DNA of 64,000 nt from contig JAHWGK010000001.1 of the NCBI GenBank assembly GCA_020054495.1, positions 19,048-83,047 on the forward strand, in the 5' to 3' direction. The notes beneath the pieces were generated by a model. That model had not been told where the DNA came from and did no database searches. It worked only from the letters and a program-made list of their open reading frames with translations. Positions within the stretch are counted from its first letter, which is position 1, and each line of letters begins with the position of its first letter. The DNA comes from Thermoplasmata archaeon (GTDB lineage: Archaea; Thermoplasmatota; E2; DHVEG-1). The translations under genes and the position numbers were made by a program. This document shows positions 11,133-46,657 of the stretch, piece after piece.

Positions 11133-11141
11133 GTTATATTA

Positions 11142-11816: not shown

Positions 11817-11904
11817 GCAATATTTACATATTAATGCTTAATTAAAATATTATCAACAAATATAGGAGAGACGGTTCTCAAATATTTAAACGGGAGAGAT
11901 TTGA

Positions 11905-14481: not shown

Positions 14482-14513
14482 ATTAAAATATCAAATATCG
14501 GAGTAAGATCTGT

Positions 14514-16543: not shown

Positions 16544-16568
16544 ATATCAAATGTTTTAGGTTTTTAAA

Positions 16569-17105: not shown

Positions 17106-17111
17106 AGGATT

Positions 17112-18704
17112 ATGTTTAAGAACCATTCGTTAATAAGACATACTCGAAAAACGGTTGATGAAATGTCGCTTGGAAGATATAACGAGAAAATTAAAACCAT
17201 CGATGGCCTTCGAAAAATAATTGGAAAACCTCCACGGAAAAAAAAGGTAATAATGTGTCATGGAACATTTGACATAGTTCATCCAGGACATATACGACAG
17301 CTTGCTTATGCTAAGGAAAAAGCAGATATCCTTGTTGCAAGTGTAACTGCAGATAAATATGTTGCCAAGGGAGAAGAAAAACCATTTGTTCCAGAAGAAT
17401 TACGTGCTAAAAACCTTGCAGCATTAGAACTAGTTGATTATGTAATAATAGATTACCACCAAAAGCCAATAGATAATATATTGAAAATAAAACCTGATCT
17501 ATTCATAAAAGGATTCGAATATGCAAAGGACGGCATACATCCAAAAACAAAAGAGGAAATAAAAGCAGTAAGCTCTTATGGCGGTGAAATAATTTTCAGC
17601 CCAGGAGATATCGTTTATTCATCTACACATCTTTTAACAGTTCATCGACCTAAGATAGCCCTTGATAAAATACTTGCCTATATGGATGTAGAAAACGTTG
17701 GCTTCAATGACATTCTGAATGTTCTAAAGAAGTTTAAAAACACCAAGGTACATGTTATTGGAGATACCATTGTTGATAAATACTCATATTGCACAGTTCT
17801 CGGTCCAACTACCAAAACACCTACTTTTAGCATAAAACTAGACTCCTCTGAAATGTTTTTAGGTGGAGCAGGAATAGTTGCAAAACACCTAAAAAATCTT
17901 GGGGCGGATGTTACATTCACGACATTACTAGGAAATGATGACCTAAAAGATTTCGTAATTAAGGATATTAAAAAATGGAACATAAAAACAAATGCAATTA
18001 TAGATAATACTAAACCTACCACTTTAAAAGAAAGATTCTGGGCAGATGGATACAAACTTTTACAAGTTGATACTGTGGATAATAGTATAGTATCCAATAA
18101 AATTCTAAAAGAAATGTGCAATCATATAAAACAAGACAAACATGATATATATGTTTTCAGTGATTTCAGACACGGCATCTTCAACAAAGAGACAATTAAA
18201 ACAATAATCGATAGCACAGATCCAAAAACAATAAAAGTTGCAGATAGTCAGGTAAGTAACAGATGGGGAAATATATTAGAGTTCAGTGGAGTAAATATTA
18301 TTTTCCCAAATGAAAAAGAGGCGAGATTTGCTCTTGGTGATCAAGATTTGGGAATTAGACCTCTTGCAGCACAGCTTTATAGAAAATCCAAGGCAAAATA
18401 TCTAGTATTAAAATTAGGGGAAAAAGGCATTCTGATTTATAGAAAACCCCGAGCACCTACCAAGCCAAGAGATTTCATATTTATTGACAGTTTTGTAGAA
18501 GAATTAAAAGATGCACTTGGTGCAGGAGATGCACTACTTGCTACAACATCTCTTGCATACAAATGCTCAAAAGATATTTTTATAAGTGCGATTCTTGGGA
18601 ATGCTGCGGCGGCTGTTGCATGTGAAAAAGAAGGAAATCATCCAGTATCAATAAAAGAAATAGAACAAAAGATAGAAAGCATTAGTAACAACAAATTTGA
18701 ATAA
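17112..18704 (+). CDS. bifunctional nucleotidyltransferase (N-terminal, HxGH) / PfkB sugar kinase (C-terminal); HldE-like with inverted domain order
   Basis: N-terminal CHGTFDIVHPGHI (cytidylyltransferase-fold HxGH). C-terminal ribokinase-family motifs GGAGIVAKHL and DALGAGDALLA. Confidence 0.75.
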   Translation: MFKNHSLIRHTRKTVDEMSLGRYNEKIKTIDGLRKIIGKPPRKKKVIMCHGTFDIVHPGHIRQLAYAKEKADILVASVTADKYVAKGEEKPFVPEELRAKNLAALELVDYVIIDYHQKPIDNILKIKPDLFIKGFEYAKDGIHPKTKEEIKAVSSYGGEIIFSPGDIVYSSTHLLTVHRPKIALDKILAYMDVENVGFNDILNVLKKFKNTKVHVIGDTIVDKYSYCTVLGPTTKTPTFSIKLDSSEMFLGGAGIVAKHLKNLGADVTFTTLLGNDDLKDFVIKDIKKWNIKTNAIIDNTKPTTLKERFWADGYKLLQVDTVDNSIVSNKILKEMCNHIKQDKHDIYVFSDFRHGIFNKETIKTIIDSTDPKTIKVADSQVSNRWGNILEFSGVNIIFPNEKEARFALGDQDLGIRPLAAQLYRKSKAKYLVLKLGEKGILIYRKPRAPTKPRDFIFIDSFVEELKDALGAGDALLATTSLAYKCSKDIFISAILGNAAAAVACEKEGNHPVSIKEIEQKIESISNNKFE

Positions 18705-18779
18705 GGTTTATTCTTAGAAAAAGTATTAAATAAACAGTAGATTACGAGAGTGGAGAAAAATACAAGGAGAAAAAAGATT

Positions 18780-19472
18780 ATGCCAATTTTTTTAGATTCA
18801 AGTATAACTTCTGAGATAAAAAAATTCCATAAAATGGGAATCATAAGAGGGATTACAACAAATCCAACTATAATGTTCAAAGATGGTGTTACTGGCGGAA
18901 TGGATGGAATTAAAGAGAGATCTAAAGAAATAGCTGATATTGTAAAACCTTATCCCGTATCAGTCGAGGTTATGACAAACGATCGAGATGGGATGATACA
19001 GCAAGCCAAGGAATTTTCAAAATGGGCTACAAATATTAATATAAAAATTACAGCACATGGTCCTAACGGCGAACTAGTCAATTTTGAAGTTGTCCACGAG
19101 CTTGAAAAAGTCCATAACATAAGGGTAAATACTACTGCAATGATGAGCGCACAACAATGTTTCTTAGCCGCCCTTGCGGGATCTACTTATGTTTCAATTT
19201 TTGGTGGAAGAGTAAACAATATGGGCTATAACTGCTGTGATGAAATACAAAAATTAAGAACTGCAATTGATGACTTTGATCTTAAATCAAAAATTATTGT
19301 AGGCTCAACCCGTGAAGTTTTAAACACCATCGAATGGTTAAATGCAGGTGCTCATATTGTAACAATTGCCCCTAAATTATTGGAGGGGATGATTGTTCAT
19401 CCTTACACTAAAGAAACTGTTCAAATGTTTTTATCTGATGCTGGAAAAATCAAATCAATGCTAAATAAATAA
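18780..19472 (+). CDS. transaldolase / fructose-6-phosphate aldolase family (type 3B, TalC/FSA-like)
   Basis: MPIFLDSS...GITTNPTI, INIKITA (Schiff-base Lys region), YVSIFGGR. ATG 18780 follows AGGAG; the tracked GTG 18750 was rejected. Confidence 0.85.
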   Translation: MPIFLDSSITSEIKKFHKMGIIRGITTNPTIMFKDGVTGGMDGIKERSKEIADIVKPYPVSVEVMTNDRDGMIQQAKEFSKWATNINIKITAHGPNGELVNFEVVHELEKVHNIRVNTTAMMSAQQCFLAALAGSTYVSIFGGRVNNMGYNCCDEIQKLRTAIDDFDLKSKIIVGSTREVLNTIEWLNAGAHIVTIAPKLLEGMIVHPYTKETVQMFLSDAGKIKSMLNK

Positions 19473-19518
19473 AACTTGGAAAAAATTCAAATCCTTGTAT
19501 TTTTACCGATGGGATGTG

Positions 19519-20061
19519 ATGAGCATTAAAAATAAGGCAGTGTTTCTTGATAGAGACGGCGTAATCAATGAAGTAGTATTTCATAATAGTGAAAAGCCAT
19601 CATCACCATGGAATTTCAATGAATTTAAGCTTATAAAAGGAGTGAAAGAACCATTGGAAGCCCTAGCAAAAATAGGATATTTACTTTTTGTAATATCAAA
19701 TCAACCTGATATATCACGAGGGTTTGTTGAAAAAGGAACGACTGAGAAAATAAGCCGGATAATCTATGATAAATACCCTGTTAAAGAGATTATAGTTTGT
19801 CCTCATGATGATCATCATAATTGTAACTGCCGTAAACCCAAACCTGGGATGATTTTAGAACTATCAAAAAAATATGATGTTGATTTAAAAAAATCGTTTT
19901 TAATTGGTGATAACTGGAAAGATACTGAAGCAGGGGAAAAAGCTGGATGTACAACTATTTTATTGGATAAAACTTATAATAAATCTGTTGAGTCTGATTA
20001 TAGAACAGAAAATCTAAACACAGCTGTAAAGTTGATAAAATCTATTCATAATAAAAATTAA
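19519..20061 (+). CDS. gmhB: D-glycero-D-manno-heptose 1,7-bisphosphate phosphatase-like HAD (GmhB)
   Basis: AVFLDRDGVINE, ISNQPDISRG, zinc-site CPHDDHHNCNCRKPKPGM, IGDNWKDTEAG. Confidence 0.85.
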   Translation: MSIKNKAVFLDRDGVINEVVFHNSEKPSSPWNFNEFKLIKGVKEPLEALAKIGYLLFVISNQPDISRGFVEKGTTEKISRIIYDKYPVKEIIVCPHDDHHNCNCRKPKPGMILELSKKYDVDLKKSFLIGDNWKDTEAGEKAGCTTILLDKTYNKSVESDYRTENLNTAVKLIKSIHNKN

Positions 20062-20184: not shown

Positions 20185-20979
20185 ATGTTAAAGAGAGATG
20201 AAAAAGAAGTTAAACCACCGATTTTTGTTCTTGGTTGTCAGCGTTCCGGTACAACCTTACTTAGAAGAATTCTGGATTCACATCCGAACATTGTTTGTCC
20301 ACCGGAATCAGTTTTTCTTGAAGAGCTATCAAAGGTCTATGAAACAGAGAGGTCAATTGCTGGTTTAGAATCTATGGGATTTAGTGAAGAAGATATATTA
20401 GAACAAATGCGTATGTTTACAACGTTTTTCTTTGAAGGATATGCAAAATCCAAGAGTAAACCACGATGGGCAGATAAAACATGCCCTTATCTAAATCACG
20501 TTAATACCATTGACTCTGTGTTTAAACAAGAAGTAGTATACATTGGAATAGTGCGACATGGTCTGGATGTTGCATATTCATTATGTGATCTTAATATGGG
20601 AGTTCTGAAACCATATATTGCAGATGGAACTGATAAAAAAATTGCGGCAATTCAATTCTGGAAAGACCAAAACATGAAACTACTGGATTTCAGAGATAAG
20701 GTTAAAGATCGTTTTTATCTTGTTAAATATGAAGATCTTACCACCAAACCAGAATCTATACTACCTGCCATTTTTAAGTTCCTTGACGAGCCGTGGGACA
20801 ATAAAATTTTAAATTATAACGATTTCGAACATGACCCAGGATTTGAAGATCCAAAGATAGCAAACTATGATAAGATACAACCTAACTTTGGTAACTATAA
20901 AAAATGGCCTATTAGCACCCAAAGGCGTTTATATCAAACAGCTCTTATGATGTTCAAACGCCTAGGTTATACCATATAG
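20185..20979 (+). CDS. PAPS-dependent sulfotransferase
   Basis: 5'-PSB loop PIFVLGCQRSGTTLLRRIL and a 3'-PB-like VRHGLDVAYS. Confidence 0.8.
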   Translation: MLKRDEKEVKPPIFVLGCQRSGTTLLRRILDSHPNIVCPPESVFLEELSKVYETERSIAGLESMGFSEEDILEQMRMFTTFFFEGYAKSKSKPRWADKTCPYLNHVNTIDSVFKQEVVYIGIVRHGLDVAYSLCDLNMGVLKPYIADGTDKKIAAIQFWKDQNMKLLDFRDKVKDRFYLVKYEDLTTKPESILPAIFKFLDEPWDNKILNYNDFEHDPGFEDPKIANYDKIQPNFGNYKKWPISTQRRLYQTALMMFKRLGYTI

Positions 20980-28451: not shown

Positions 28452-29750
28452 CTAACTTTCGAATCCAAGAATTATATCTACTGCCTTTCGAGTTGCACCA
28501 TCTTTTGTTCTAGACAAATATTTATTAAAATTATTAACAAAAATTTTACGGTCTTTTTCAGGGTTTGACTTAAACTTCATTATCCATTTTTTAAGTTCAA
28601 TTGTATCTTTTGCTTGAGGTGAAAAACCAACCATCGCATAATCATCAACTAGATTTTTTAAATTTACATCTTTGTACAAAATTGTAGGTTTTCCAACTGA
28701 AAGAGCATCAAGTACTGCAGATCCTCGGCCCATATAAATTACTATATCGGAAATTGAAGATAGACTCATAGCTTGAGATTGATCAATAGTCCATCTTTTT
28801 TTATCATATTTATTAAGAAGGCTTTTAAGATGTTTAAGATCTTGTCTTGGATGCGGTTTAACAATCAAAAAAGAATCTGGAAAAGAAATTACAGTATCCA
28901 CAATTTCATGAAACGTAGCACTTAAGGTCTCTTTTGTAAAACTAGAAGCGGTCGGTCTAACTGTAAACAATAAAAAAATGGTTTTTTTAGAATCGTATAC
29001 TTTTTTCTTGGAACCATGCCTATCCCAATTATCTAGGATAAATTGAATCCACCAGTCATCATATCTTGGAATTCCAACCGCATGTGTTTTGTTTTTGTAT
29101 GTTTTGTTTCTTTTGTTTAGTAATTGTGTCATTTCTTTTGTGTTACATAGGATATCGTCTGCAAAACGTGTTGGAGTCTTTTGAGAATCTGATTTTTTTG
29201 ATATTGGAATATTATAGATGCAGGTTGCATGCGGGAATATTACTTCTCTAGCTCCCATTTTTCGTGCTATATCTACAATACGTTTTCTTGTACCTTTATC
29301 TTGAGATTCATCTTTGAGTAAAACATCAGGTTTGATTTTGTTCATCATTTTTTTATTTGGTGGGAATATTCTGAAAAAATATTCAAATATATGGTTTTCT
29401 TGAAATATCGTTAATTTTGATCGAATAGTTTTGTTAAATATTCTCATAAATATGTTAAAAATTCTTTTATGAACTGGTTTAAGAAAATCTTTTGTTTCAT
29501 ACCAGTTATCTACACAATTTAAAAGTAGATTCTTTAGGAATGTGTTTTCCTTTAGTATTGCATTTGAGTCTAAATGATTAAACAAAACGGATTGAGTAAT
29601 TTCAGGATAATTATTTTTTATATATTGACAAATAGGTAAGATCCAGTCTATTTCCCCCCAGGAGGTATCAATCAAAATTAGAATGTTTTTGACATTTCTG
29701 TGTTTTTCAGGATCTTTTTCCTTTGAATTGTACAATTTTTTAACACCCAA
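28452..29750 (-). CDS. GT-B-like transferase with HP motif (TagF/capsule-synthesis/sialyltransferase-like)
   Basis: FLIVKPHPRQD followed by SDIVIYMGRGSAVLDALSVGKPTILY. This layout is shared by CDP-glycerol glycerophosphotransferases and CMP-sugar transferases. Confidence 0.45.
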   Translation of the reverse strand: MGVKKLYNSKEKDPEKHRNVKNILILIDTSWGEIDWILPICQYIKNNYPEITQSVLFNHLDSNAILKENTFLKNLLLNCVDNWYETKDFLKPVHKRIFNIFMRIFNKTIRSKLTIFQENHIFEYFFRIFPPNKKMMNKIKPDVLLKDESQDKGTRKRIVDIARKMGAREVIFPHATCIYNIPISKKSDSQKTPTRFADDILCNTKEMTQLLNKRNKTYKNKTHAVGIPRYDDWWIQFILDNWDRHGSKKKVYDSKKTIFLLFTVRPTASSFTKETLSATFHEIVDTVISFPDSFLIVKPHPRQDLKHLKSLLNKYDKKRWTIDQSQAMSLSSISDIVIYMGRGSAVLDALSVGKPTILYKDVNLKNLVDDYAMVGFSPQAKDTIELKKWIMKFKSNPEKDRKIFVNNFNKYLSRTKDGATRKAVDIILGFES

Positions 29751-29916: not shown

Positions 29917-30963
29917 CTGCCAAAAAATGGTTATAATTCCGTAACACTACCAGATGCCTTAGTAAAAGATATAGACAATTTTGTAGATCAGAGTAATAAA
30001 TTGATTTCAAGCAGAAGTGAAGCGCTAAAATTAGCATGGATAGAGTATAAAGATAAACATATAGAAAATGTATTAGATAAATCTGTAAGAAAAGATACTT
30101 CCAAAGTGAAAATTGGCAATAAAGCTGTGGGGGATGGTGAACCTGTTTTTTTCATAGCAGAGATTGGCATTAATCATAATGGAGACATTGAAATAGCGAA
30201 AAAACTAATTGATATTGCAGTTGAAACGGGTTGTGATGCTGTTAAATTTCAAAAAAGAACAGTTGATATTGTTTATTCAAAAAAAGAGTTAGAAAGGCCA
30301 AGAGAAAACCCATTTGGTACGACTAACGGGGATCTTAAAAGAGGATTAGAATTCGGCGAGAAGGAATTTAGTGTAATTGATAAGTATTGTAAACAAAAAA
30401 ACATACTTTGGTTTGCATCCTGTTGGGACGAAAAAAGTGTAGATTTTATAGATCAGTTTAACCCACCATGCTATAAAATTGCATCTGCATGTTTGACAGA
30501 TGATAATTTATTAAAACATACAAAAGCCAAAGGTAAACCAATTATGTTATCAACTGGTCTTAGTACAATTGATGAAATCAAACATGCAGTCGATATTCTA
30601 GGAACAAAGGGTCTTATTATTTTACATTGCACATCAACATATCCTTCAGCACTAGATGAATTAAATTTAAAAGTAATACAGAATTTTAAAAAGAGGTTTA
30701 ATTGTCCAATTGGCTATAGTGGCCATGAAGTTGGTGTAACACCTAGTCTAATGGCGGCTGTAATGGGATCATGTGTAATTGAAAGACATATTACCCTAGA
30801 TAGGGCTATGTGGGGTAGTGATCAAGCTGCAAGTCTAGAACCTAATGGTATTAGAAGACTTGTAAGGGATATTGGACAAATATCTATTGTCAACAGTGAT
30901 GGAATAAAAAAAGTTTATGAGAGTGAATTACCGATTAAATCTAAGTTAAGGCGAGTTGGATGA
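29917..30963 (+). CDS. NeuB-family (sugar + PEP) synthase lacking the SAF domain, with an in-frame N-terminal ribbon-helix-helix-like segment
   Basis: NeuB core VFFIAEIGINHNGD, CDAVKFQKR, YKIASAC, GYSGHE, IERHITLDR. Upstream in the same frame: NSVTLPDALVKDIDNFVDQSNKLISSRSEALKLAWIEY. The 5' end is uncertain (CTG 29917, ATT 29914, TTG 30001 or GTG 30106). Confidence 0.75.
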   Translation: MPKNGYNSVTLPDALVKDIDNFVDQSNKLISSRSEALKLAWIEYKDKHIENVLDKSVRKDTSKVKIGNKAVGDGEPVFFIAEIGINHNGDIEIAKKLIDIAVETGCDAVKFQKRTVDIVYSKKELERPRENPFGTTNGDLKRGLEFGEKEFSVIDKYCKQKNILWFASCWDEKSVDFIDQFNPPCYKIASACLTDDNLLKHTKAKGKPIMLSTGLSTIDEIKHAVDILGTKGLIILHCTSTYPSALDELNLKVIQNFKKRFNCPIGYSGHEVGVTPSLMAAVMGSCVIERHITLDRAMWGSDQAASLEPNGIRRLVRDIGQISIVNSDGIKKVYESELPIKSKLRRVG

Positions 30964-31550
30964 AAAAAAAAATTGAAGAAATAATACAGGCGAATATAGA
31001 TACAACTACTAAACTATTGAAATCTGATTTGGAAAAAATCGAAGAAACAGTAAGTATTATAACTAAAGCTTTAAAGAATGGAAATAAGCTATTAATTTTT
31101 GGAAATGGTGGCAGCGCAGCCGATGCTCAGCATATCGCGGCTGAGTTTATCAACAAATTCAGATTTGATAGAGATCCTTTACCAGCAATTGCATTAACAA
31201 CAGATTCGTCCATATTAACTTGTATATCAAATGACTCTAGTTTTAGTCATATTTTTGAAAAACAAATAAAGGCTTTAGGAAACAAAGGCGACATCGCCCT
31301 AGCAATAACCACCAGTGATTCAATTTTAGAAGAAAATGCTCATTCATCAAATATTGGATTTGCACTTGCTGCATCTAGAGAAAAAGGAATAACAACTATC
31401 GGATTTGTTAGTGAGAAAAGTAAAACTATTTTAGATTACCTTGATCATTATATTAAAATTCCTTCATCGGATACGCCTAGAATTCAGGAGGCGCACATCT
31501 TAGTTGGTCATATTATTTGTGAACTTGTTGAACAGGAAATATTTCATTAA
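30960..31550 (+). CDS. gmhA: SIS-domain phosphoheptose isomerase (GmhA-like)
   Basis: LLIFGNGGSAADAQHIAAEF, LTTDSS, DIALAITTS, QEAHILVGHIIC. ATGA overlap with the upstream stop. Confidence 0.85.
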   Translation: MKKKIEEIIQANIDTTTKLLKSDLEKIEETVSIITKALKNGNKLLIFGNGGSAADAQHIAAEFINKFRFDRDPLPAIALTTDSSILTCISNDSSFSHIFEKQIKALGNKGDIALAITTSDSILEENAHSSNIGFALAASREKGITTIGFVSEKSKTILDYLDHYIKIPSSDTPRIQEAHILVGHIICELVEQEIFH

Positions 31551-31568
31551 ATATCTAGGTAGAAAAAT

Positions 31569-32135
31569 ATGATTAGTAAAAAAATAGCCGAGCCGATATT
31601 AATTCATGGGAGTAATTTCAGATTAGAGAGTTTTAATGATAAATATGTTACAGAAGAATATGTGAGTTGGTTAAGAGATAAAGAAATTGCAGAAGTAATC
31701 ATTAGTGCTAACCCAAATGTTACAATAGAAAATGTTCAAGATTATTGTCAAAAAATGATGGAAAGTAATGACAATTATTTTTTTGCTATTGTTATGAATG
31801 CAAATGATAAACATATAGGTAATCTAAGATTGGGGCCTATTGATTATGATCAACGAAGTTGTAGATATGGAATGATGATTGGTAATAAGGATTATCATAA
31901 CAAAGGAGTTGGATCAGAAGTAGTTAAGTTAGCCTTAGATTTTTGTTTTCAAACTCTAGGCATGCATAAAGTCTTTTTAGATGTTTTAGAGCATAATAAA
32001 CCTGCGATTAAAATCTATGAAAAGAATGGTTTTGAAACTGAAGGAATACAACGTGACCAATTTTACAAAGATAGTAAATATTACGACGTTAGAATAATGG
32101 GTATTATTAATCCAAAGGAGAGAAATACCAAATGA
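31569..32135 (+). CDS. GNAT-family N-acetyltransferase
   Basis: HNKGVGSEVV...IKIYEKNGFETEG GNAT core. Confidence 0.8.
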   Translation: MISKKIAEPILIHGSNFRLESFNDKYVTEEYVSWLRDKEIAEVIISANPNVTIENVQDYCQKMMESNDNYFFAIVMNANDKHIGNLRLGPIDYDQRSCRYGMMIGNKDYHNKGVGSEVVKLALDFCFQTLGMHKVFLDVLEHNKPAIKIYEKNGFETEGIQRDQFYKDSKYYDVRIMGIINPKERNTK

Positions 32136-32818
32136 GCCGGCATATAGCAATGATACCAGCGCGGATGGGGAGTGTTGGTTTCAAACATAAAAACAGGAAG
32201 TTTTTTGATTGTACTGCAGATTTTCTTGATGATGTTAAATGGTTTGATAGAGTAATTGTTTCAACAGATGACCCAGTTGTAAAAGAATACTCAGAAAAAA
32301 GGGGATACGACGTTCACATTCGTCCAGAAGAGTTAGCAGGCCCTGTAGTTTCAATTAAACAAGTTTTTGAAAGTGTAATAGAAGACATGAGCATCGAAAA
32401 AGATGATATTCTTTGGTTGTTCTACTTACCAATTCTGTATAAGAGTCATGCTGATTTTGAAGAATCTAAAAAAATAATTGAAAAACCTGATGTGAAAAGT
32501 CTTTGTTCTTTTATCAAAGCTGAGACTCATCCATATGTTTGTTGGAATTACGACTCTGATAAAAAAACTTTAACACAGTATATAGAAAACGATTGTTTTA
32601 GAAGGCAGGATCAGCCACTGGCATGGGAGCACCACCATTATCTTTATTGTTTCAAAGCAGAGGAGATATCTAAGCTCGATAATGAAATGATAAATAGCAA
32701 AACATATCCTGTTTTTTTAGACGAGGAAACGGCTGAGAATTTGCTTGAGATGGATGCACCTTCAGATTATGAAAAATGGAAAAAGAAATTTGGAGAAAAA
32801 GGAGTGATTAAAAAATGA
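32132..32818 (+). CDS. divergent acylneuraminate (CMP-ulosonic acid) cytidylyltransferase family protein
   Basis: IAMIPARMGSVGFKHKNRKF is a degenerate version of IPARGGSKGIPRKN. The size fits the family. Confidence 0.65.
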   Translation: MSRHIAMIPARMGSVGFKHKNRKFFDCTADFLDDVKWFDRVIVSTDDPVVKEYSEKRGYDVHIRPEELAGPVVSIKQVFESVIEDMSIEKDDILWLFYLPILYKSHADFEESKKIIEKPDVKSLCSFIKAETHPYVCWNYDSDKKTLTQYIENDCFRRQDQPLAWEHHHYLYCFKAEEISKLDNEMINSKTYPVFLDEETAENLLEMDAPSDYEKWKKKFGEKGVIKK

Positions 32819-34170
32819 GCGTAACAGTAAATATTAAAAAACCTGTTATTAAAAAATCAGATGAAATATACGCACGAGCAGAAAAAATAATACCTTCAGG
32901 AACACAAACTTTTAGTAAAGGTACAAATCAGTTTGTAAGAGGATTTGCGCCCAAATATATTGCAAAAGGTAAAGGATGTTATACATGGGATGTTGATGGG
33001 AACAAATATCTAGATATGATAATGGCATGTCATGCAAAAATTCTTGGTTATGCAGATCCAGATGTAAATCAAGCTGTAAAGGACCAACTTGACATAGGAA
33101 CCACATACAGTCTCCCACATGAATTAGAAGTAGATGTTACAGAGAAATTAATAGATGCAATACCCTGCGCAGAAGCTGCTCGTTTTGGAAAAAACGGAGC
33201 AGATGCAACATCTATTTGTGTCAGAGTTGCAAGAGCCAATACTAATCGTGACCATATCGCATACTGTGGCTACCATGGCTGGCATGACTGGTATATTGCA
33301 AATACAGACCTAAATTCAGGCATACCATATTTCAACCAGGAACTGGCACATTCTTTTGCATATAATCAGATAGAAACACTTGAGAACATATTCAATGAAT
33401 ATCCAGATGATATAGCAGTAGTAATAATGGAAGCACTTACAATACTTGAGCCAAAAGACAACTTCCTCCACAAAGTCAAAAAACTAACACATGACCATGG
33501 AGCGCTTCTAGCATTTGATGAGGTTATGACAGGGTTTAGATTCTCATTTGGAGGAGCACAAGAGCTAACTGGTGTAACACCAGATATTGCAGCCTTTGCA
33601 AAAGCAATCTCAAATGGCATACCGCTTTCTGCAATAGTCGGTAAAAAAGATTATATGTTCTGCCTTGACAAAACATTTTTCTCATTTACATATGGCGGGG
33701 ACTGTGTAGGACTTGCCGCAGCAAATGCATGCATTCCAAAGCTTAAGAGAGAAAAGGTATCAGAACACCTTCACAAAGTCGGAAAAGTATTAAAAGATGG
33801 ATACAACAAACTTGCAGAGCAACACGGTCTTGCAGATTACACCAATTGTATGGGATATCCCTGCAGAACAGTTATATCATTTGACGGGCAGGGAACATAT
33901 GATTCCCTTGAAATGAAATCATTCTTCCAACAAGAGATGATAAGACGAGGAGTTCTCTGGGCTGCATATCATGCACTAACCTGGTCACATAAACTGGAAG
34001 ATATCGAATACACACTAGCCTGCTATGACGAAGCACTTGCAGAATTCAAGAAAATTGTTGATAAAGGTGACAAAATCAAATATCACCTAGAAGGCCCACC
34101 AGTAGAACCAGTCTTCAGAAAAGTTGCAGATTTTATGTCATATACAATGAAAGATAAAAAGGTAAATTAG
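32815..34170 (+). CDS. class III PLP aminotransferase (glutamate-1-semialdehyde aminomutase-like)
   Basis: FGKNGADAT, FDEVMTGFRF, DIAAFAKAISNG (PLP Lys). Confidence 0.85.
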   Translation: MSVTVNIKKPVIKKSDEIYARAEKIIPSGTQTFSKGTNQFVRGFAPKYIAKGKGCYTWDVDGNKYLDMIMACHAKILGYADPDVNQAVKDQLDIGTTYSLPHELEVDVTEKLIDAIPCAEAARFGKNGADATSICVRVARANTNRDHIAYCGYHGWHDWYIANTDLNSGIPYFNQELAHSFAYNQIETLENIFNEYPDDIAVVIMEALTILEPKDNFLHKVKKLTHDHGALLAFDEVMTGFRFSFGGAQELTGVTPDIAAFAKAISNGIPLSAIVGKKDYMFCLDKTFFSFTYGGDCVGLAAANACIPKLKREKVSEHLHKVGKVLKDGYNKLAEQHGLADYTNCMGYPCRTVISFDGQGTYDSLEMKSFFQQEMIRRGVLWAAYHALTWSHKLEDIEYTLACYDEALAEFKKIVDKGDKIKYHLEGPPVEPVFRKVADFMSYTMKDKKVN

Positions 34171-34173
34171 CCA

Positions 34174-35016
34174 ATGAAGAAAATAGGAATCGTACAGGGG
34201 AGATTATCACCACCGGTAGATAATCAAATACAAGCGTTTCCAATATATACATGGAAAGATGAGTTTCCAATATATGAACAACTTGGGCTTTCCTGTATCG
34301 ATTGGTTATTCAAATATGAAACAGTTGCAGGTAACCCCTTAAGCTCTGATTCTGGGATTGAACAGATTAAAGAACTATGTCACAAGCACAATGTCAAGAT
34401 AAACGCAGTTTTATCTGATTATTTCATGGTTAAAAAACTGTTTGGCGAAGAAGCAGATGAATCGATTAAAACCCTGTATTTTTTAATTGACCAATGTAAC
34501 AAATGTGGCATACCAAACATTGTTCTTCCTTTTGTGGATAATGCTGCTATAAAAGCAGAAGAGGATAAAAAACAAATAGTCGAAAATCTAACAGAACATA
34601 TACGATATGCTAACAAGAAAAATATCAATATCATAATAGAAGGGAGTTTGGAACCTGTTGTGTTTAGAGATTTTATAATATCTTTCAAACCTCTTAATAT
34701 GAAAATTAACTATGACATGGGTAACAGCACTGGTCTTGGTTATAATCCTAGAGAAGAAATAAGATTATTAGGAGAGTTTTTCGGAAGTGTTCATATCAAA
34801 GATAAAATAAAAAGTGGCGGAACTGTACCACTAGGTACTGGTAATGTAGATTTCGAAACAGTTTTTAATGAGCTTAAAAATATTGATTATTCTGGAAATT
34901 TTGTTTTAGAAACAGCACGCCAGGATTTAGAAGAGACTAAATTTATAAATGATAGAGTAGAAACAATAAAAAATTATATTAATTTCGTAAAACCATATCT
35001 AGAGGGATTTGAATGA
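34174..35016 (+). CDS. xylose-isomerase-like TIM-barrel sugar(-phosphate) isomerase/epimerase
   Basis: 280 aa. Pattern ...IIIEGS..., NYDMGN, VHIKD, FVLE is typical of the AP_endonuc_2 fold. Confidence 0.65.
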   Translation: MKKIGIVQGRLSPPVDNQIQAFPIYTWKDEFPIYEQLGLSCIDWLFKYETVAGNPLSSDSGIEQIKELCHKHNVKINAVLSDYFMVKKLFGEEADESIKTLYFLIDQCNKCGIPNIVLPFVDNAAIKAEEDKKQIVENLTEHIRYANKKNINIIIEGSLEPVVFRDFIISFKPLNMKINYDMGNSTGLGYNPREEIRLLGEFFGSVHIKDKIKSGGTVPLGTGNVDFETVFNELKNIDYSGNFVLETARQDLEETKFINDRVETIKNYINFVKPYLEGFE

Positions 35017-35828
35017 GATTTAGTTTAAAAAATCAGATAGTTGTAATAACAGGTGGCGGTGGTTTCCTAGGTGGTAAGCATGCCGAAGCAATAGCAGAAA
35101 TAGAAGGCATTCCGATCCTGATAGACATTGATGAAGAAAGTGCGAAGGCTAAAGCAAAATCAATTGAGGAAGAATATGGCAGTGCAGCATTAGGTTACAA
35201 AGTAGATATTACATCTACCGAAGAAATTGAAACGCTTGCAGATGATCTTTTAAAAAGATTTGATAAAATTGATGTATTAATCAATAATGCAGCCATGAAT
35301 CCTCAGATGGATTATAAAACAGAGAAAGAAGAAACACGTTTAGAAAACTTCTCTCTTGAACGCTGGAATGATGAAGTTTCTGTTGGACTCACGGGTGCTT
35401 TTATTTGTAGTAAAATTATTGGTCCACATATGGCAAAAAGAGGTAAAGGTGTAATTTTGAATATTGCCTCTGACCTTGGACTTATAGCTCCAGATCAAAG
35501 AATATATCGGAAAAAAAACCTTTCAGACGACAAGCAGCCTGTTAAACCTGTTACTTACACTGTGGTAAAACATGGTCTTATAGGTTTAACACGTTACTTA
35601 GCAACTTATTGGTGTGATAAAGGAGTTCGTGTCAATGCTTTATGTCCAGGCGGAATATACAATAATCAACCTGAAGATTTCGTAGAAAAGCTTACGAATC
35701 TTATACCTCTCGGGAGAATGGCCAATCCCGACGATTACAAGGGAGCCATTCAGTTTATGTGTAGTGATGCCTCTATTTATATGACTGGTTCAATTGTTGT
35801 AATAGATGGCGGACGTACCTGCTGGTAA
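35013..35828 (+). CDS. short-chain dehydrogenase/reductase
   Basis: VITGGGGFLGG, NNAA, YTVVKHG (YxxxK), NALCPGG. Confidence 0.85.
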   Translation: MRFSLKNQIVVITGGGGFLGGKHAEAIAEIEGIPILIDIDEESAKAKAKSIEEEYGSAALGYKVDITSTEEIETLADDLLKRFDKIDVLINNAAMNPQMDYKTEKEETRLENFSLERWNDEVSVGLTGAFICSKIIGPHMAKRGKGVILNIASDLGLIAPDQRIYRKKNLSDDKQPVKPVTYTVVKHGLIGLTRYLATYWCDKGVRVNALCPGGIYNNQPEDFVEKLTNLIPLGRMANPDDYKGAIQFMCSDASIYMTGSIVVIDGGRTCW

Positions 35829-35884
35829 AAAGGATTAATTTTTATAGTTAAACATATAAAGACAAGATATTTTCCTATATCTCT

Positions 35885-36346
35885 ATGTATTCTAAGATAA
35901 AACTACTAGCATTAGATTTTGATGGGGTTATGACTGATAACAAGGTTATTGTGGATGAAAACGGTAAGGAATCAGTTGTTTGCAATAGAAGCGATGGAAT
36001 GGGTATAGAGAAAATAAAAAAGAGAGATATAGAAGTAATTGTTATTTCCAAAGAACAAAATAATGTTGTAAGAGCACGTTGTGATAAACTAAGGATTCCA
36101 TGTGTTCATGGTATAGATGACAAGTTATCAATTTTAAAAAAAGAAATAGAAAAAAGAAATCTAACTCCCGAAGAAGTTTGTTTTGTCGGAAATGATGTTA
36201 ACGATATTGAATGCATTAAATATGTTGGGATGGGTGTCGCTGTAAACAATGCTTATCCCGAGGTTAAAAAAATAGCAAAAATGGTTACAGAAAAAACCGG
36301 TGGTGAAGGAGCAGTAAGGGAAGTAATTGACAAAATATTATCCTAG
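35885..36346 (+). CDS. HAD-IIIA KdsC-family ulosonate-phosphate phosphatase
   Basis: LLALDFDGVMTDN, NRSDGMGI, VGNDVNDIE. The 153-aa size is typical of KdsC/KDN-9-P phosphatases. Confidence 0.8.
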   Translation: MYSKIKLLALDFDGVMTDNKVIVDENGKESVVCNRSDGMGIEKIKKRDIEVIVISKEQNNVVRARCDKLRIPCVHGIDDKLSILKKEIEKRNLTPEEVCFVGNDVNDIECIKYVGMGVAVNNAYPEVKKIAKMVTEKTGGEGAVREVIDKILS

Positions 36347-36356
36347 TTTTCCAGCT

Positions 36357-38003
36357 TTACTTTTCTTCTTTGTTTTTTAACTCAGATTTTACATAGCCCA
36401 TCATTTTTTTAGGATGAAAAAGGTCTATGAAAAAATGAAAATCATCTTTTTTAAACTCCCTTAACGCAAATAATACTGCCATATAAATTGCCAGTCCAAC
36501 TAGTGAAAAACTGATTAAATGATACCAGCGGAATAATACAATAAATGACTTAAGATAATATAGAGTTCCTCCCATAACTATGCCCGCTATGATATGTCTT
36601 ATAGTATGGCTTTGTAGGATTTTGATTCCTGTAAATCTTTTTGCTGCAAGTCTTGTACCGAAGAAATATATCAAAGCTGAAATAGCTGTTGCGGTTGCAG
36701 CTCCTGTTGGTCCATTAATGGATATCACATATGAGCTGATTCTAATATTTGAAAGTAAACCATTTTCTGGAATAATCAAATAATTTAAAATTATGTTTGT
36801 ACCACATAACATTACTCCAATTAATGCTTGTATCTTTGGTTTGTTTATACCAAGAACAAGATTTGCATAAGGAAGAGATATTCCATAAATAAAAACCCAT
36901 ATTAACAAGGTCATCAAAACGGGTGCTGCTGGTAAAAAAGCAGTATCTAGAACTATTTCGATAATTCGCGAGGCAAATAAAAGGACTACAACTATCGGAG
37001 GAATCAAAACCATCGAAATGTATCTTTCTGCTAAACGAACCGCTTTTTTAATTTCCCCGAAATTATTAGAAGCATGATACTTTGAAATTGTTGGAAAGAG
37101 AACAGTGCCAACAGCCATCGCCAAAATTGTTATAAGACCGGTTATACGTTGAACTGTGAAATAATAACCAACCTCTACAGATGTCCAAAAAAATCCTATC
37201 ATAACTTTATCAATATTTGTAGAAATAATAGCAATAACTGATGAAAATGCGACAGGAACGGCAAAGGAAAAATAGCTCTTAAATAAAATCCAATTAGGTT
37301 TTTTCAAAGGGTACTTTCTAAAAAGCCAAAATCCTACAAAAAATGTTGCCATCATGCCAAAGACATAGGTCATTGCCAAAGAACCAACTGCATGATCTGC
37401 AATGAATTTTTGGAGCGGTTGAATAAATTCCGGCCAATCAAACGCAGGGGTAACACTATAAAATTTACCTGCGACAAAAAATCCAGTAACCCCTGCCAAG
37501 GCTACAATGATTAAAAGAGGGGTTTTAACGATGGTTTCTAACATTTCCGCGATTTGTTTCTTTGCAATTTCTCGCCTACCAACAAAAGTATTAATCGGTA
37601 TAGATTTTAATAACGAAAAAATGGTGTAAATAAGCATGATGAAGAAAACAGATTCTGTTGTTGCATCTGTAAAACCTTCGTTAAAGATATATTTCGAAAT
37701 AAAATAAGTACCAATAAGAAGTATTAACATCAAACTCGTAAGAAATATTTTAATTACTACAAATGTACCGATACAAGTACCTAAATCTTGTCCTTCTGAT
37801 ACCCTTTTGATATGTGCTTGAGAAAAACCTAGATCAGTTACAGCATTAAACAAAGCAATAAATGATAATGCAAATCCAATAATACCAAGAGCGGCTGGTG
37901 CAGCTTGTCCCCATAGCTTTGCCAGTACAAAAAATCCAATAATGGCTAGAGTTTTGATAATAAAATTTGTTGACACAATCAGAAAAGATTTCCTGGCAAT
38001 CAT
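36357..38003 (-). CDS. MOP-superfamily polysaccharide/oligosaccharide flippase (Wzx-like)
   Basis: 548 aa, about 14 predicted TM helices, typical polysaccharide-biosynthesis-protein layout. Confidence 0.8.
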   Translation of the reverse strand: MIARKSFLIVSTNFIIKTLAIIGFFVLAKLWGQAAPAALGIIGFALSFIALFNAVTDLGFSQAHIKRVSEGQDLGTCIGTFVVIKIFLTSLMLILLIGTYFISKYIFNEGFTDATTESVFFIMLIYTIFSLLKSIPINTFVGRREIAKKQIAEMLETIVKTPLLIIVALAGVTGFFVAGKFYSVTPAFDWPEFIQPLQKFIADHAVGSLAMTYVFGMMATFFVGFWLFRKYPLKKPNWILFKSYFSFAVPVAFSSVIAIISTNIDKVMIGFFWTSVEVGYYFTVQRITGLITILAMAVGTVLFPTISKYHASNNFGEIKKAVRLAERYISMVLIPPIVVVLLFASRIIEIVLDTAFLPAAPVLMTLLIWVFIYGISLPYANLVLGINKPKIQALIGVMLCGTNIILNYLIIPENGLLSNIRISSYVISINGPTGAATATAISALIYFFGTRLAAKRFTGIKILQSHTIRHIIAGIVMGGTLYYLKSFIVLFRWYHLISFSLVGLAIYMAVLFALREFKKDDFHFFIDLFHPKKMMGYVKSELKNKEEK

Positions 38004-44029: not shown

Positions 44030-45463
44030 TTAGATATTATGTAATCCCAATACTCCAATCCAATATCCTACTGCAACCAGAAATACAATTACTATACAAA
44101 TAATATTTGCTAAAACACCAGCCTTAAATAAATCCTTTGTTGAAAAATAACCTGATGAATACGTTATTGCATTACCTGGAGTTGCTATAACAAGCATAAA
44201 CGCAAGTCCACCGCTTAAAGCGATAATCATTGATGAAAGTAAAGGACTTATTCCTATTGCTGGTGCCAATGCTATACCAATTGGCAATAAAATTGCAACA
44301 GCTCCAATATTTGACATAACCTCTGTCAGCAATATAGTTATAATTATCATTACAAGAATCACTAAATAAAGATTAGAGCCTGCTAAACTGAATATTTGAT
44401 CAGCTATCCATTGTCCAGCTCCGGTTTTTTGAATGCCAATTCCTAAAGTAATTGCTCCTCCATAAAGTAAAATAATACCCCAAGGGACTCGCTTTTCTAC
44501 ATCTTTCCAAGTAATAACGCCTGTTAAAAACAATAGGATACTTCCAAGTATTGAAATGACTGCAAGTCCAAAATATTGATATGATGAGAAGAAAATCCAA
44601 AGTAAGATTGTTATTATCAGTATAATTAAAACTAGGAATTCGTTTTTCTTCATTTTTCCTGTGATACTGACTTGATTTTTAATTTCTTTTCTTGCTGCAG
44701 AAATGTCCTTTATTTCAATTGGAAAAGAAAACTGTAGGACAAGCCAGACTAAAGGTAATGCAATGATTACAACAGGCATAGAATACTTCATCCAATCAAA
44801 AAAAGTTACATCTATTCCAATATCTGAGAGAATGCCAATGGTTAGAGGATTACGAGCCCCACCTATTAGAGTTCCTAAACTACCAATTGAACACCCAAAT
44901 GCAACGCTTAACATACTAATCTTTCCAAAATTACTCTGTTTTGGGACTATTTTCATGGCAATTAGAATTGATACGACAATTGGTAAAAAAAGTGCAGCGA
45001 CACCGTGCTCGGGCATAACAAATGATAAAAATGCACAAGATGTCATGATTCCAAATGTAAAGAAACGTGGGCTTTTCTCGAATTTGCTTAAAAACTTTAA
45101 AGCAATACGTCGGTGGAGGCCATGTTTTTCGATTGCACCAGCAAGAATAAATGCACCTATTAAGAAAAATACTGCCTGATTTCCAAATGAAGAAAAGACA
45201 TCATTTGGAGGTATAACATGTAACAAGGGCTGAATTATCATTATTAAAAGACCAGTTACAGCTAGTGGTATTGCTTCAGTTATCCACAAAATTGCAGCCA
45301 TAATTAAAATTCCTATCATAACTTGGCCATCATGAGTTAAACCGCTTGGATTTGGGGAAAAATAAAATATTGCTACAATTAAAAAGGCTAGTAAAATAAA
45401 AAAAATGTCTTTATGACTCTGGATTTTAAGTTTACTTTTAAAATAATTATTATCGTCTTTCAT
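44030..45463 (-). CDS. DASS/SLC13-family Na+-coupled anion symporter (candidate sulfate importer)
   Basis: 477 aa polytopic protein. Repeated hairpin-type motifs (SFVMPEHG.., VMSNIGAVA) typical of DASS. Sits in the sat/cysC operon. Confidence 0.75.
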   Translation of the reverse strand: MKDDNNYFKSKLKIQSHKDIFFILLAFLIVAIFYFSPNPSGLTHDGQVMIGILIMAAILWITEAIPLAVTGLLIMIIQPLLHVIPPNDVFSSFGNQAVFFLIGAFILAGAIEKHGLHRRIALKFLSKFEKSPRFFTFGIMTSCAFLSFVMPEHGVAALFLPIVVSILIAMKIVPKQSNFGKISMLSVAFGCSIGSLGTLIGGARNPLTIGILSDIGIDVTFFDWMKYSMPVVIIALPLVWLVLQFSFPIEIKDISAARKEIKNQVSITGKMKKNEFLVLIILIITILLWIFFSSYQYFGLAVISILGSILLFLTGVITWKDVEKRVPWGIILLYGGAITLGIGIQKTGAGQWIADQIFSLAGSNLYLVILVMIIITILLTEVMSNIGAVAILLPIGIALAPAIGISPLLSSMIIALSGGLAFMLVIATPGNAITYSSGYFSTKDLFKAGVLANIICIVIVFLVAVGYWIGVLGLHNI

Positions 45464-46045: not shown

Positions 46046-46657
46046 CTACCCTTTTATGAGACCTAGTTCTTTTAATTTTTTCATAACTTTTTCTGCACTT
46101 TCTTCTACAGTTTCTTTATCAGTGTCAACTATTAGTTCTGGATTTTCTGGTTCTTCATAAGGAGCATTAATTCCTGTGAAATCTTTTATTATTCCTTCCC
46201 TTGCTTTTTTATATAAACCTTTAGGATCTCGCTTTTCACATGTTTCAAGAGAGGCTCTACAAAATATTTCGACAAATCTTCCATCTCCAACCAGTTCTCT
46301 GCAGAAATTTCTATATTTTCTGTACGGAGAAATAAAAGCAGTTATAGCAATCACGCCAGCATCTGCAAAAAGATTGGCAACTTCAGATATTCTTCTAATA
46401 TTTTCGTTCCTATCCTCAGGCGAAAAACCAAGATTTTTATTAAGTCCCTGGCGAATATTATCTCCATCGAGCACATACGTAAGTTTTCCTATAGAATGTA
46501 AGTTGTATGCAACTTCATTTGCAACTGTTGATTTTCCGCTACCAGATAGCCCTGTAAACCATAGGACTGCTCCCTTCTGTTTTAAAAGCACTTCTCTTTC
46601 TTCTTTTGTTACTTTATGTTCATGCCATGTTACATTTGTTGCTTTTTTTTCTACCAT
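46046..46657 (-). CDS. cysC: adenylyl-sulfate (APS) kinase
   Basis: VLWFTGLSGSGKSTVA, LDGDNIR, ITAFISPYR, KGLYKKAR. Confidence 0.95.
   Translation of the reverse strand: MVEKKATNVTWHEHKVTKEEREVLLKQKGAVLWFTGLSGSGKSTVANEVAYNLHSIGKLTYVLDGDNIRQGLNKNLGFSPEDRNENIRRISEVANLFADAGVIAITAFISPYRKYRNFCRELVGDGRFVEIFCRASLETCEKRDPKGLYKKAREGIIKDFTGINAPYEEPENPELIVDTDKETVEESAEKVMKKLKELGLIKG

Follow-up and report, generated by a model that had tools for sequence, protein, structure and literature searches.

The biosynthesis of 3-deoxy-D-manno-octulosonic acid (Kdo) proceeds through KdsD, KdsA, KdsC and KdsB, and in Shewanella its 8-amino derivative (Kdo8N) is made by KdnB and KdnA, the terminal alcohol being freed, oxidised and transaminated. 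To our knowledge, all known routes to nitrogen-bearing sialic-acid-like sugars start from nucleotide sugars; sugars of this type shape the recognition of microbial surfaces by phages, predators and hosts. The CMP-linked form of the deaminated sialic acid Kdn is made with no nucleotide-sugar precursor, mannose 6-phosphate (Man-6-P) and phosphoenolpyruvate (PEP) being condensed to Kdn-9-P, which is converted to Kdn and then to CMP-Kdn (PMC6200933). Here we describe an eight-gene operon in a stretch of 64,000 nucleotides (hereafter, the window) from a Thermoplasmata archaeon (contig JAHWGK010000001.1, positions 19,048 to 83,047). Judging by its gene content, we think it likely, though by no means certain, that the operon encodes a self-contained pathway, separate from the UDP-sugar-based route to pseudaminic acid (Pse) encoded in the same window, in which a sugar phosphate is turned into a CMP-activated amino-ulosonic acid bearing an N-acetyl group.

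The core of the operon resembles the Kdo pathway in possessing a SIS isomerase, a predicted condensation of PEP with an aldose phosphate, a KdsC-family phosphatase and CMP activation. It differs in that the synthase belongs to the NeuB and not the KdsA family, and in that the isomerase is of the GmhA type rather than the KdsD type (SIS plus CBS). The amination block follows the order of Kdo8N formation, oxidation and then transamination; unlike Kdo8N, the oxidase is an SDR and not an Fe-alcohol dehydrogenase, the aminotransferase is a class III enzyme like glutamate-1-semialdehyde aminomutase (GSAM) and not of the KdnA type, and the amine would be N-acylated. With the CMP-Kdn systems of Bacteroides thetaiotaomicron and Prymnesium parvum the operon shares a NeuB-family synthase predicted to use PEP and a sugar 6-phosphate, a KdsC-type HAD and a CMP-transferase. 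Beyond these it has a dedicated isomerase resembling GmhA, an epimerase resembling UlaE, an SDR, a GNAT and an aminotransferase of class III, and its HAD lies under the KDN-9-P phosphatase model (108 versus 180 bits). The B. thetaiotaomicron proteins are Q8A712, Q8A711 and Q8A710, with BT1714 as the Kdn-9-P synthase; the support for likening the archaeal synthase to this type of enzyme is contextual, from its linkage to HAD and CMP-transferase genes.

The vertebrate NANS/NANP/CMAS route likewise employs a phosphorylated aldose, later dephosphorylation and CMP activation, but NANS carries a SAF/AFP domain, NANP is another type of HAD, and the nitrogen is derived from UDP-GlcNAc through GNE. The Pse and legionaminic acid (Leg) systems (PseB/C/H/G/I/F; LegB/C/H/G/I/F; PtmA/PtmF) resemble the proposed product, a CMP-activated N-acylated ulosonic acid for surface glycans, and provide the nearest named relatives of the GNAT, the CMP-transferase and the SDR (PseH, PseF and PtmA, respectively). 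Unlike them, the operon lacks a 4,6-dehydratase, a DegT aminotransferase and a nucleotidase, and its synthase has no SAF domain. By family, the core appears akin to Kdo and CMP-Kdn biosynthesis, the amination block to that of Kdo8N and the end product to Pse, Leg or N-acetylneuraminic acid (Neu5Ac), and the isomerase, oxidase and aminotransferase families differ from those of all the known systems compared. Full-text searches of the literature revealed no description of this gene set, which agrees with the suggestion of an earlier note, made from the DNA sequence, that the route is undescribed. The cluster suggests a second way to nitrogen-bearing ulosonic acids, in which sugar phosphates would provide the backbone, as they do for Kdo and Kdn, and a class III aminotransferase would bring in the nitrogen.

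The operon and its proteins

Eight co-directional open reading frames occupy positions 30106-36346 of the + strand (Table 1). The ATGA overlaps described in the earlier note were found at 30960, 32132, 32815 and 35013, and the remaining three junctions are gaps of 18, 3 and 56 nt, so that the genes form three translationally coupled blocks, NeuB+SIS, GNAT+CTP+AT3 and TIM+SDR. Pfam and NCBIfam models reproduced all eight of the family assignments made in that note. The 56-nt gap before the HAD gene (35829-35884) is AT-rich, with TTTATA approximately 40 nt 5′ of the ATG, which could be an internal archaeal promoter.

Table 1. Genes of the operon and of two flanking candidates for use of its product. 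Short names used in the text: CTP, CMP-transferase (cytidylyltransferase); AT3, class III aminotransferase; TIM, xylose-isomerase-like TIM barrel; GFO, GFO_IDH_MocA oxidoreductase.
Predicted product	Coordinates	Strand	Families and remarks
SAF-less NeuB-family synthase, extended frame	29917..30963	+	catalytic core 30106-30963; in-frame N-terminal extension 29917-30105
GmhA-like single-SIS sugar-phosphate (ketose to aldose) isomerase	30960..31550	+	SIS_2
GNAT N-acetyltransferase, PseH-like but distinct	31569..32135	+	Acetyltransf_3
Divergent CMP-ulosonate cytidylyltransferase (CTP)	32132..32818	+	CTP_transf_3
Class III (GSAM-like) pyridoxal phosphate-dependent aminotransferase (AT3)	32815..34170	+	Aminotran_3; PRK06209 best model
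Xylose-isomerase-like TIM barrel, most like ketose-phosphate 3-epimerase (TIM)	34174..35016	+	AP_endonuc_2
Classical SDR oxidoreductase	35013..35828	+	adh_short_C2
KdsC-type (C0) HAD sugar-acid phosphate phosphatase	35885..36346	+	TIGR01670
Candidate glycosyltransferase for the product, divergent, weak evidence	28452..29750	-	Glyphos_transf, Glycos_transf_1 at E ~1e-4
Wzx/MATE-type flippase, convergent, 10 nt from HAD stop	36357..38003	-	Polysacc_synt_3, Polysacc_synt, MatE

None of the proteins passes an equivalog-level model among those for NeuB, PseI, GmhA, PseF, HemL, UlaE, PtmA, PseH, KdsC and KDN-9-P phosphatase, from which it follows that no gene of the operon encodes a straightforward orthologue of a named enzyme. 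The 4,6-dehydratase, DegT aminotransferase and PseG/NeuC homologues, which the earlier note had reported missing from the operon, are indeed confined to a Pse cluster approximately 13 kb upstream. This cluster (8962-17105) contains the full PseB/C/F/G/H/I set, its genes being those for PseB, PseC, PseF, WbuX/HisH/WbuZ, PseG, a SAF-containing PseI and PseH, the last (16569-17105) scoring 139.9 bits on TIGR03585; the note's picture of a second pathway standing alongside a Pse pathway is congruent with this. Since a complete Pse set is present separately, and since the identities between the operon proteins and the PseI, PseH and PseF of the window are no more than 38%, 26% and 28%, respectively, the operon represents a further set of ulosonic-acid genes rather than a piece of the Pse cluster. 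One might argue that the genes are spare or variant Pse paralogues (PseI-, PseH- and PseF-like) that diversify Pse, given that the best named matches of the GNAT and CTP are PseH and PseF and that SAF-less NeuB clusters are often located beside Pse or Leg clusters. We regard this as most improbable: besides these low identities, the scores fall far under the equivalog cut-offs, a KdsC phosphatase, a GmhA-like isomerase and a UlaE-like epimerase have no role in Pse chemistry, and the actinomycete Nonomuraea has a CTP-HAD-NeuB trio on its own, no synthase of the Pse type being seen in the flanks of 8 kb that were examined.

The synthase matches PF03102 over profile positions 1-240 of 241 (258 bits; cut-off 22.1), shows no match to PF08666 (SAF) and ends approximately 20 residues past the barrel. 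It falls below the equivalog cut-offs for NeuB/NnaB (TIGR03569; 249 versus 399.65 bits) and PseI (TIGR03586; 205 versus 340.25 bits), which, together with the 38% identity to the PseI of the window and the clade motifs given below, shows that it is not close kin of the characterised NeuB, PseI or LegI enzymes, as the interpretation in the earlier note requires. There are more than 8000 SAF-less homologues of approximately 288 aa, many of them 65-75% identical across bacterial phyla, and the best match in the PDB is 6ncs, a 290-aa SAF-less protein (~154 bits). The protein belongs to the "environmental" SAF-less NeuB group, whose members, of about 285 aa, consist of the TIM barrel alone and come chiefly from environmental organisms; a published phylogeny that already recognised these branches left their function open, assigned no substrate and noted no linkage to a phosphatase or isomerase (PMC8208679). 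Alignment of the synthase clade with the PseI of the window, SpsE and 6ncs reveals KFQKRT where the others have KFQ(T/A)(Y/F), a conserved basic loop inserted after strand beta-2 (RPRENPFG.TNGDLKRGLEFG) that is missing from 6ncs, the sequence KIASA(C/S)LTD, in which C or S replaces the acidic residue of the KIAS-x-E motif, and a basic C-terminal tail, KLRRVG. A loop in the same region of human NANS is reported to favour its phosphorylated substrate, N-acetylmannosamine 6-phosphate (ManNAc-6-P; PMC8208679), and by analogy the extra conserved basic residues of this clade would suit a phosphorylated substrate. The GSDQ motif was considered as a loss of the metal-binding His, and this was rejected, the ligand being believed to lie in the conserved IERH motif.

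The start of the synthase is uncertain. The earlier note had placed it at 30106, and an open reading frame is present there, but 30106 is not secure as the real start: the frame runs a further 63 codons upstream (29917-30105), coding for LPKNGYNSVTLPDALVKDIDNFV..SSRSEALKLAW. Close relatives (81-93% identical) carry this 63-residue extension within proteins of 348-351 aa, yet the long-form start codon, TTG in the syntenic contig L089 (L089:4563), is CTG at the matching codon of the window, so that 29917 (CTG), 30001 (TTG) and 30106 (GTG) are all candidates. The extension matches RHH_1 only at E = 0.069, and its AlphaFold2 model consists of two low-confidence helices; with such an E-value from Pfam and low model confidence (pLDDT), a ribbon-helix-helix assignment could not be confirmed and is a resemblance only. 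Fusion of a DNA-binding domain to a sugar synthase would be out of the ordinary, and support for one here is weak.

The SIS protein is assigned to SIS_2 and lies below the cut-offs of the phosphoheptose isomerase models (175 versus 276 and 155 versus 209 bits). Its best PDB match is the GmhA of B. pseudomallei (157 bits), and it keeps a Glu and a His aligned with the catalytic residues of E. coli GmhA, which we take to be E65 and H180. The phosphate-binding STSG loop contains a 7-aa insertion (residues ~120-135; window ~31350-31400), which was rejected as a subfamily signature because, among the NeuB-linked SIS proteins aligned, only those of the window and L005 have it. The TIM barrel protein scores 84 bits on AP_endonuc_2 and, as a single sequence, 40 bits versus 200-317 on the UlaE/SgbU models; the profile of its family matches E. 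coli UlaE (L-ribulose-5-P 3-epimerase) over the full length (E = 3e-24). Within the family, E156, D181 and H207 are invariant and, with a conserved E/Q position, fit a metal site. The protein most likely epimerises a ketose phosphate, which would place it before the isomerase, and its role is probably in forming the precursor and not in tailoring the product. In loci anchored on NeuB its gene is found together with that of the SDR.

The HAD, of 153 aa, passes TIGR01670 for the KdsC/YrbI C0 subfamily (129.4 bits; cut-off 106.95) and contains LDFDGV and GNDVND; with its DxD and GDxxxD motifs intact it is a C0 phosphatase of the KdsC family, as the earlier note had proposed. It does not reach the equivalogs for KdsC (NF007019; 123 versus 208 bits) or KDN-9-P phosphatase (NF058599; 108 versus 180 bits). 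Its PDB matches include 3mmz (136 bits), E. coli KdsC (86 bits) and the KDN9P phosphatase 3e81 (BT1713) of B. thetaiotaomicron (85 bits), the near equality of the last two meaning that the substrate cannot be read from the sequence.

The cytidylyltransferase is divergent, as stated in the earlier note, whose motif IPARMGSVGFKHKN is present (ARMGSVGFKHKN): it scores only 30.1 bits on CTP_transf_3 (PF02348; cut-off 22.6) and misses PseF (TIGR03584; 44.5 versus 205.7 bits). Residues 3-203 match the CMP-Neu5Ac synthetase 6ifd (E = 5e-12), and R11, K20, RRQD and EMDxxxD are kept, the GKPL loop being absent. Its subfamily is small (112 clusters), and in all orthologous bacterial clusters examined the gene is directly followed by that of AT3. 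The latter scores 161 bits on Aminotran_3, 402 on PRK06209 (cut-off 486) and 233 on hemL (TIGR00713; cut-off 527), and the context in every locus examined consists of glycan genes, not tetrapyrrole genes. PDB neighbours of AT3 are GSAM, gentamicin-type C-6′ aminotransferases, D-phenylglycine aminotransferase and aminopentol aminotransferase; the solved relatives act on aldehyde or ketone carbons, including those of sugars and polyols. Relatives 44-57% identical are found at approximately 600 genome loci in a set of species-representative genomes. As a pathway marker AT3 alone was rejected, haloarchaeal plasmid homologues (42-44% identical) being located in an unrelated amidohydrolase context. 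In the lipopolysaccharide genes of Legionella pneumophila serogroup 6 a GSAM-like aminotransferase with no assigned function adjoins a cytidylyltransferase (PMC3694923), and what class III aminotransferases do in nonulosonic acid clusters seems not to have been characterised.

The GNAT scores 70 bits on Acetyltransf_3 and 70.3 on PseH (TIGR03585; cut-off 93.1, missed), and is 26% identical to the true PseH of the window. The SDR gives 150 bits on adh_short_C2, 172 on PRK09186 (cut-off 255) and 121 on PtmA (NF050062; 350, missed); its PDB neighbours include mannitol dehydrogenases and FabG, and orthologues 51-59% identical are found in the clusters designated clades A and C.

Orthologous clusters and gene fusions

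A gene-neighbourhood search of the kind suggested in the earlier note showed that the signature is conserved, the full eight families being present in Paucidesulfovibrio gracilis and seven of them in each of three further bacteria (Table 2). These loci form clade C, the neighbourhoods of the divergent CMP-transferase subfamily, which we treat as true orthologues of the operon. Across L175-L178 the CTP is 49-62% and AT3 66-71% identical to the proteins of the window; for P. gracilis the values are AT3 68%, CTP 62%, SDR 57%, NeuB 52%, HAD 49%, GNAT 48%, SIS 41% and TIM 31%.

Table 2. Clusters of clade C, with gene content in the short names of Table 1 and AT3 identity to the window.
Locus	Source	Gene content	Remarks	AT3 identity
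L176	Paucidesulfovibrio gracilis DSM 16080	all eight families plus GFO_IDH_MocA oxidoreductase		68%
L175	Paramagnetospirillum caucaseum	HAD-NeuB-TIM-formyltransferase-CTP-AT3-GFO-SDR	SIS nearby; seven families	71%
L178	gammaproteobacterial metagenome-assembled genome	SIS, HAD, NeuB, TIM, formyltransferase, CTP, AT3, GFO, SDR	seven families	70%
L177	Pelagibacter	SIS-NeuB-TIM-GNAT-CTP-AT3-SDR	seven families	66%
JGI contig		NeuB-GNAT-CTP-AT3-TIM-GFO-SDR	gene order as in the window, save GFO	
L009	SAR11 single-cell genome	SIS-NeuB-SDR-CTP-AT3-TIM-formyltransferase		57%

In L176 (48%), L177 and the JGI contig a GNAT orthologue occupies the corresponding position, and a formyltransferase takes the place of the GNAT in L009, L175 and L178, an exchange that is expected if an amine is made and then N-acylated. 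In L178 a single 675-aa protein (L178:18404-20431), located in a neighbouring Pse/Leg-like cluster, combines CTP_transf_3 with a class III aminotransferase showing 32% identity to AT3 of the window. Two genes for B12-binding radical SAM proteins (L175:4860-6752 and 17052-18614) flank the cluster of P. caucaseum; enzymes of this kind often C-methylate.

A second type of cluster (clade B) was scored at 65 AT3-anchored genome loci with sufficient flank. It consists of a transferase-like gene, CTP, a split transketolase, AT3, SDR, HAD and NeuB, and is found in approximately 60 bacterial genomes, the hosts including Ignavibacteria, Bacteroidota, Acidobacteriota, Myxococcota, Nitrospirota, Chloroflexota and a Methylomagnum plasmid. 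NeuB is a partner at 61/65 of the loci, SDR at 60/65, the CMP-transferase at 58/65, a GT-B-like protein at 53/65, HAD at 49/65 and the split transketolase at 39/65; counts of this size across phyla indicate that the combination AT3-SDR-HAD-NeuB is widespread and not a quirk of the window. In most of these clusters the N- and C-terminal transketolase subunits lie between the CMP-transferase and AT3 (e.g., L171:5083-6893), and a possible role for them is to provide a ketose phosphate or to lengthen an aldehyde by two carbons.

The core recurs in a metagenomic sample of 51 loci, each 4 kb or longer and anchored on a gene closely related to that of the synthase, with partners counted within 9 kb. 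As a rule, NeuB and HAD genes are adjacent. A KdsC-like HAD accompanies the SAF-less NeuB in 38 of the 51, the SDR orthologue in 18, a GmhA-like SIS in 16, a CMP-transferase in approximately 16 and the TIM barrel in 13. Gene fusions, namely NeuB-SIS (P0114 from L008, followed by a transaldolase and a transketolase), HAD-SIS (L103:3278-4336) and CTP-HAD (L133:1832-3019 and L127:8688-9932), link the four core functions NeuB, SIS, HAD and CTP. The two CTP-HAD fusions mirror the architecture of CMAS with its KdsC-like C-terminal domain (PDB 3ewi), and the Nonomuraea trio looks exactly like a minimal CMP-Kdn pathway; several flagellated bacteria have the NeuB-HAD pair only. The route appears to be widespread, with carriers among marine archaea, SAR11, sulfate reducers and magnetotactic relatives.

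These associations bear on the suggestion that the operon is not one pathway, its SIS being the missing GmhA of the ADP-heptose genes in the Pse region and the rest unrelated, co-transcribed sugar-modifying enzymes. The HldE-like, transaldolase and GmhB-like genes at 17112-20061 do lack a GmhA partner, and the SIS gene of the operon is the sole GmhA homologue in the window. Nonetheless, the adjacency of NeuB and SIS with a 4-nt overlap is kept in L005 and L091, the NeuB-SIS and HAD-SIS fusions tie the isomerase to the core, and all five of the clade C clusters with DNA (L009, L175-L178) have a SIS gene within them or close by, HldE being seen in none of them. A merely fortuitous assembly of genes is, on this evidence, very unlikely.

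One subtype of SAF-less NeuB locus (L136, L137, L153, L154 and L166) includes a TPP (thiamine pyrophosphate)-dependent enzyme, a TIM barrel, and GFO_IDH_MocA or extra SDRs, often with a DegT aminotransferase nearby. The TPP-dependent enzyme, TIM barrel and GFO_IDH_MocA are the families of IolD, IolE and IolG of inositol catabolism, and by analogy the combination hints at oxidise-dehydrate chemistry on a sugar.

A proposed route and its alternatives

In the pathway that we favour, the UlaE-like TIM barrel would epimerise a common ketose phosphate, e.g., fructose-6-P or sedoheptulose-7-P, and the GmhA-like SIS would isomerise the product to an uncommon aldose phosphate. The SAF-less NeuB-like synthase would condense the latter with PEP to yield a 3-deoxy-ulosonic acid with a terminal phosphate, which the KdsC-type HAD would take off. 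The SDR would then oxidise a hydroxyl of the ulosonic acid to a carbonyl, the GSAM-like AT3 would convert this to an amine, the GNAT would acetylate it and the divergent cytidylyltransferase would form the CMP-sugar, to be used for a surface glycan by the neighbouring transferase-like proteins and flippase. That the GNAT, CTP and AT3 genes are translationally coupled suggests that theirs are late steps. The observation set out in the earlier note is confirmed, and each part of its interpretation that could be put to a test in silico was favoured, within the reach of sequence and genomic context; these leave more than one choice of substrate, aminated carbon and stage of amination (C8, C9 or C10; three stages).

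Several points weigh against this reading. Each of its steps is assigned from family membership and comparative genomics. The C or S in the KIAS-x-E motif means that catalytic details of the synthase may differ from those of NeuB, and the start codon of its long form is CTG in the window. The constant adjacency of CTP and AT3, and the fusion of their families in L178, mean that amination may take place on the CMP-sugar and not on the free acid, and so bear on whether tailoring possibly avoids nucleotide-linked intermediates. The SIS could serve heptose activation also, or instead, given the HldE-like/transaldolase/GmhB-like trio with no GmhA. Lastly, the GFO_IDH_MocA oxidoreductase of the bacterial orthologous clusters (L175, L176, L178 and the JGI contig) is lacking in the window, for which reason the redox chemistry of the latter may be incomplete or different.

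The nitrogen might instead enter before condensation, on the sugar phosphate. The SDR (with GFO in bacteria) and AT3 would then produce an amino-sugar phosphate, to be acetylated by the GNAT and converted by the NeuB-like enzyme to an N-acetylated amino-ulosonate phosphate, and HAD and CTP would finish a product that could be Neu5Ac-like. There are general precedents, in that NtdC and NtdA make kanosamine-6-P and the animal route leads from ManNAc-6-P to Neu5Ac-9-P. The TIM barrel and SIS are clearly of families that act on sugar phosphates, the neighbours of the SDR include polyol and ketose dehydrogenases, and the clade B order transketolase-AT3-SDR-HAD/NeuB is compatible with a ketose phosphate being made and aminated first. 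Set against this, the coupled and always contiguous GNAT, CTP and AT3 genes point to late steps, clade A clusters have TIM and SDR in the absence of any class III aminotransferase, and the GSAM-like relatives mostly aminate aldehydes. Early amination is in our opinion possible but unlikely, and amination after condensation, as in the pathway above, is preferred.

As to the substrate, a hexose-6-P such as Man-6-P would give a C9 sugar and has precedent, a heptose-7-P would give C10 and a pentose-5-P C8. The likeness of the isomerase to GmhA and the transketolase and transaldolase genes of L008 and clade B favour heptose-7-P. In its specific form this idea takes D-glycero-D-manno-heptose-7-P, made from sedoheptulose-7-P by the GmhA-like isomerase, as the substrate, and a ten-carbon (or larger) amino-ulosonic acid as the product, a class of sugar for which we know of no described biosynthesis. 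The match of the SIS to a genuine GmhA is close (157 bits), with the counterparts of E65/H180 retained, and enzymes able to form sedoheptulose-7-P accompany the clusters (the transaldolase and transketolase of L008; the split transketolase in 39/65 of clade B). Furthermore, CMP-activated keto-acid sugars with a C10 backbone, to which no genes have been assigned, are reported in Magnetospirillum gryphiswaldense (bioRxiv 10.64898/2026.04.20.719630), and an orthologous cluster is present in Paramagnetospirillum caucaseum. However, Man-6-P is the substrate in the characterised precedent, fructose-6-P and pentose phosphates are likewise products of transketolase and transaldolase, and no transketolase is found in the window. 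The C10 species of Magnetospirillum are doubly N-acetylated, and C-methylation is another possible source of their extra carbon; the P. caucaseum cluster is flanked by two genes for B12-radical SAM proteins. We thus consider a heptose-7-P substrate rather unlikely, and it is with equal doubt that we raise the broader proposal that the cluster family makes a new class of amino-ulosonic acid from a rare aldose phosphate, with a backbone of maybe at least 10 carbons derived from heptose-7-P. If true, the family would be the missing biosynthetic basis of the CMP-activated higher-carbon keto-acid sugars of Magnetospirillum; this link is only a lead.

Culturable carriers, P. gracilis DSM 16080 with all eight families and P. 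caucaseum with seven, make both the product and the pathway directly testable, and the cluster offers candidate genes for the CMP-linked keto-acid sugars that are emerging from untargeted mass spectrometry.

Surroundings of the operon

Two transferase-like open reading frames are divergent from the operon. The product of that at 28452..29750 shows weak similarity (E = 4e-6) to a conserved protein of approximately 440 aa encoded after the SDR in L177 and L178. Downstream are the Wzx-type flippase, the arrangement of which is syntenic in contig L089, two archaeal sugar-1-P nucleotidyltransferase/acetyltransferase genes and GlmS. The window, with a G+C content of ~32%, also encodes a prenyltransferase of the DGGGP-synthase type and an archaeal-type PurQ; scans of it for tRNA genes and Rfam families gave no matches.

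Three adjoining genes at 17112-20061 code for an HldE-like kinase/adenylyltransferase in which the domain order is reversed, a transaldolase and a GmhB-like HAD, a predicted nucleotide-heptose (or higher sugar) activation set that has no GmhA of its own. Within the Pse cluster, genes for a WbuX-type amidotransferase and HisH/HisF-like (WbuZ) proteins (11905-14481) suggest that pseudaminic acid is converted to an acetamidino derivative. The same island contains genes for a sulfotransferase, adenylyl-sulfate kinase, sulfate adenylyltransferase and a DASS anion symporter (20185-20979, 46046-46657, 47667-48818 and 44030-45463), which suggests synthesis of 3′-phosphoadenosine 5′-phosphosulfate for glycan sulfation. 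Sulfotransferase genes also flank the orthologous clusters in P. gracilis (L176) and the JGI contig.

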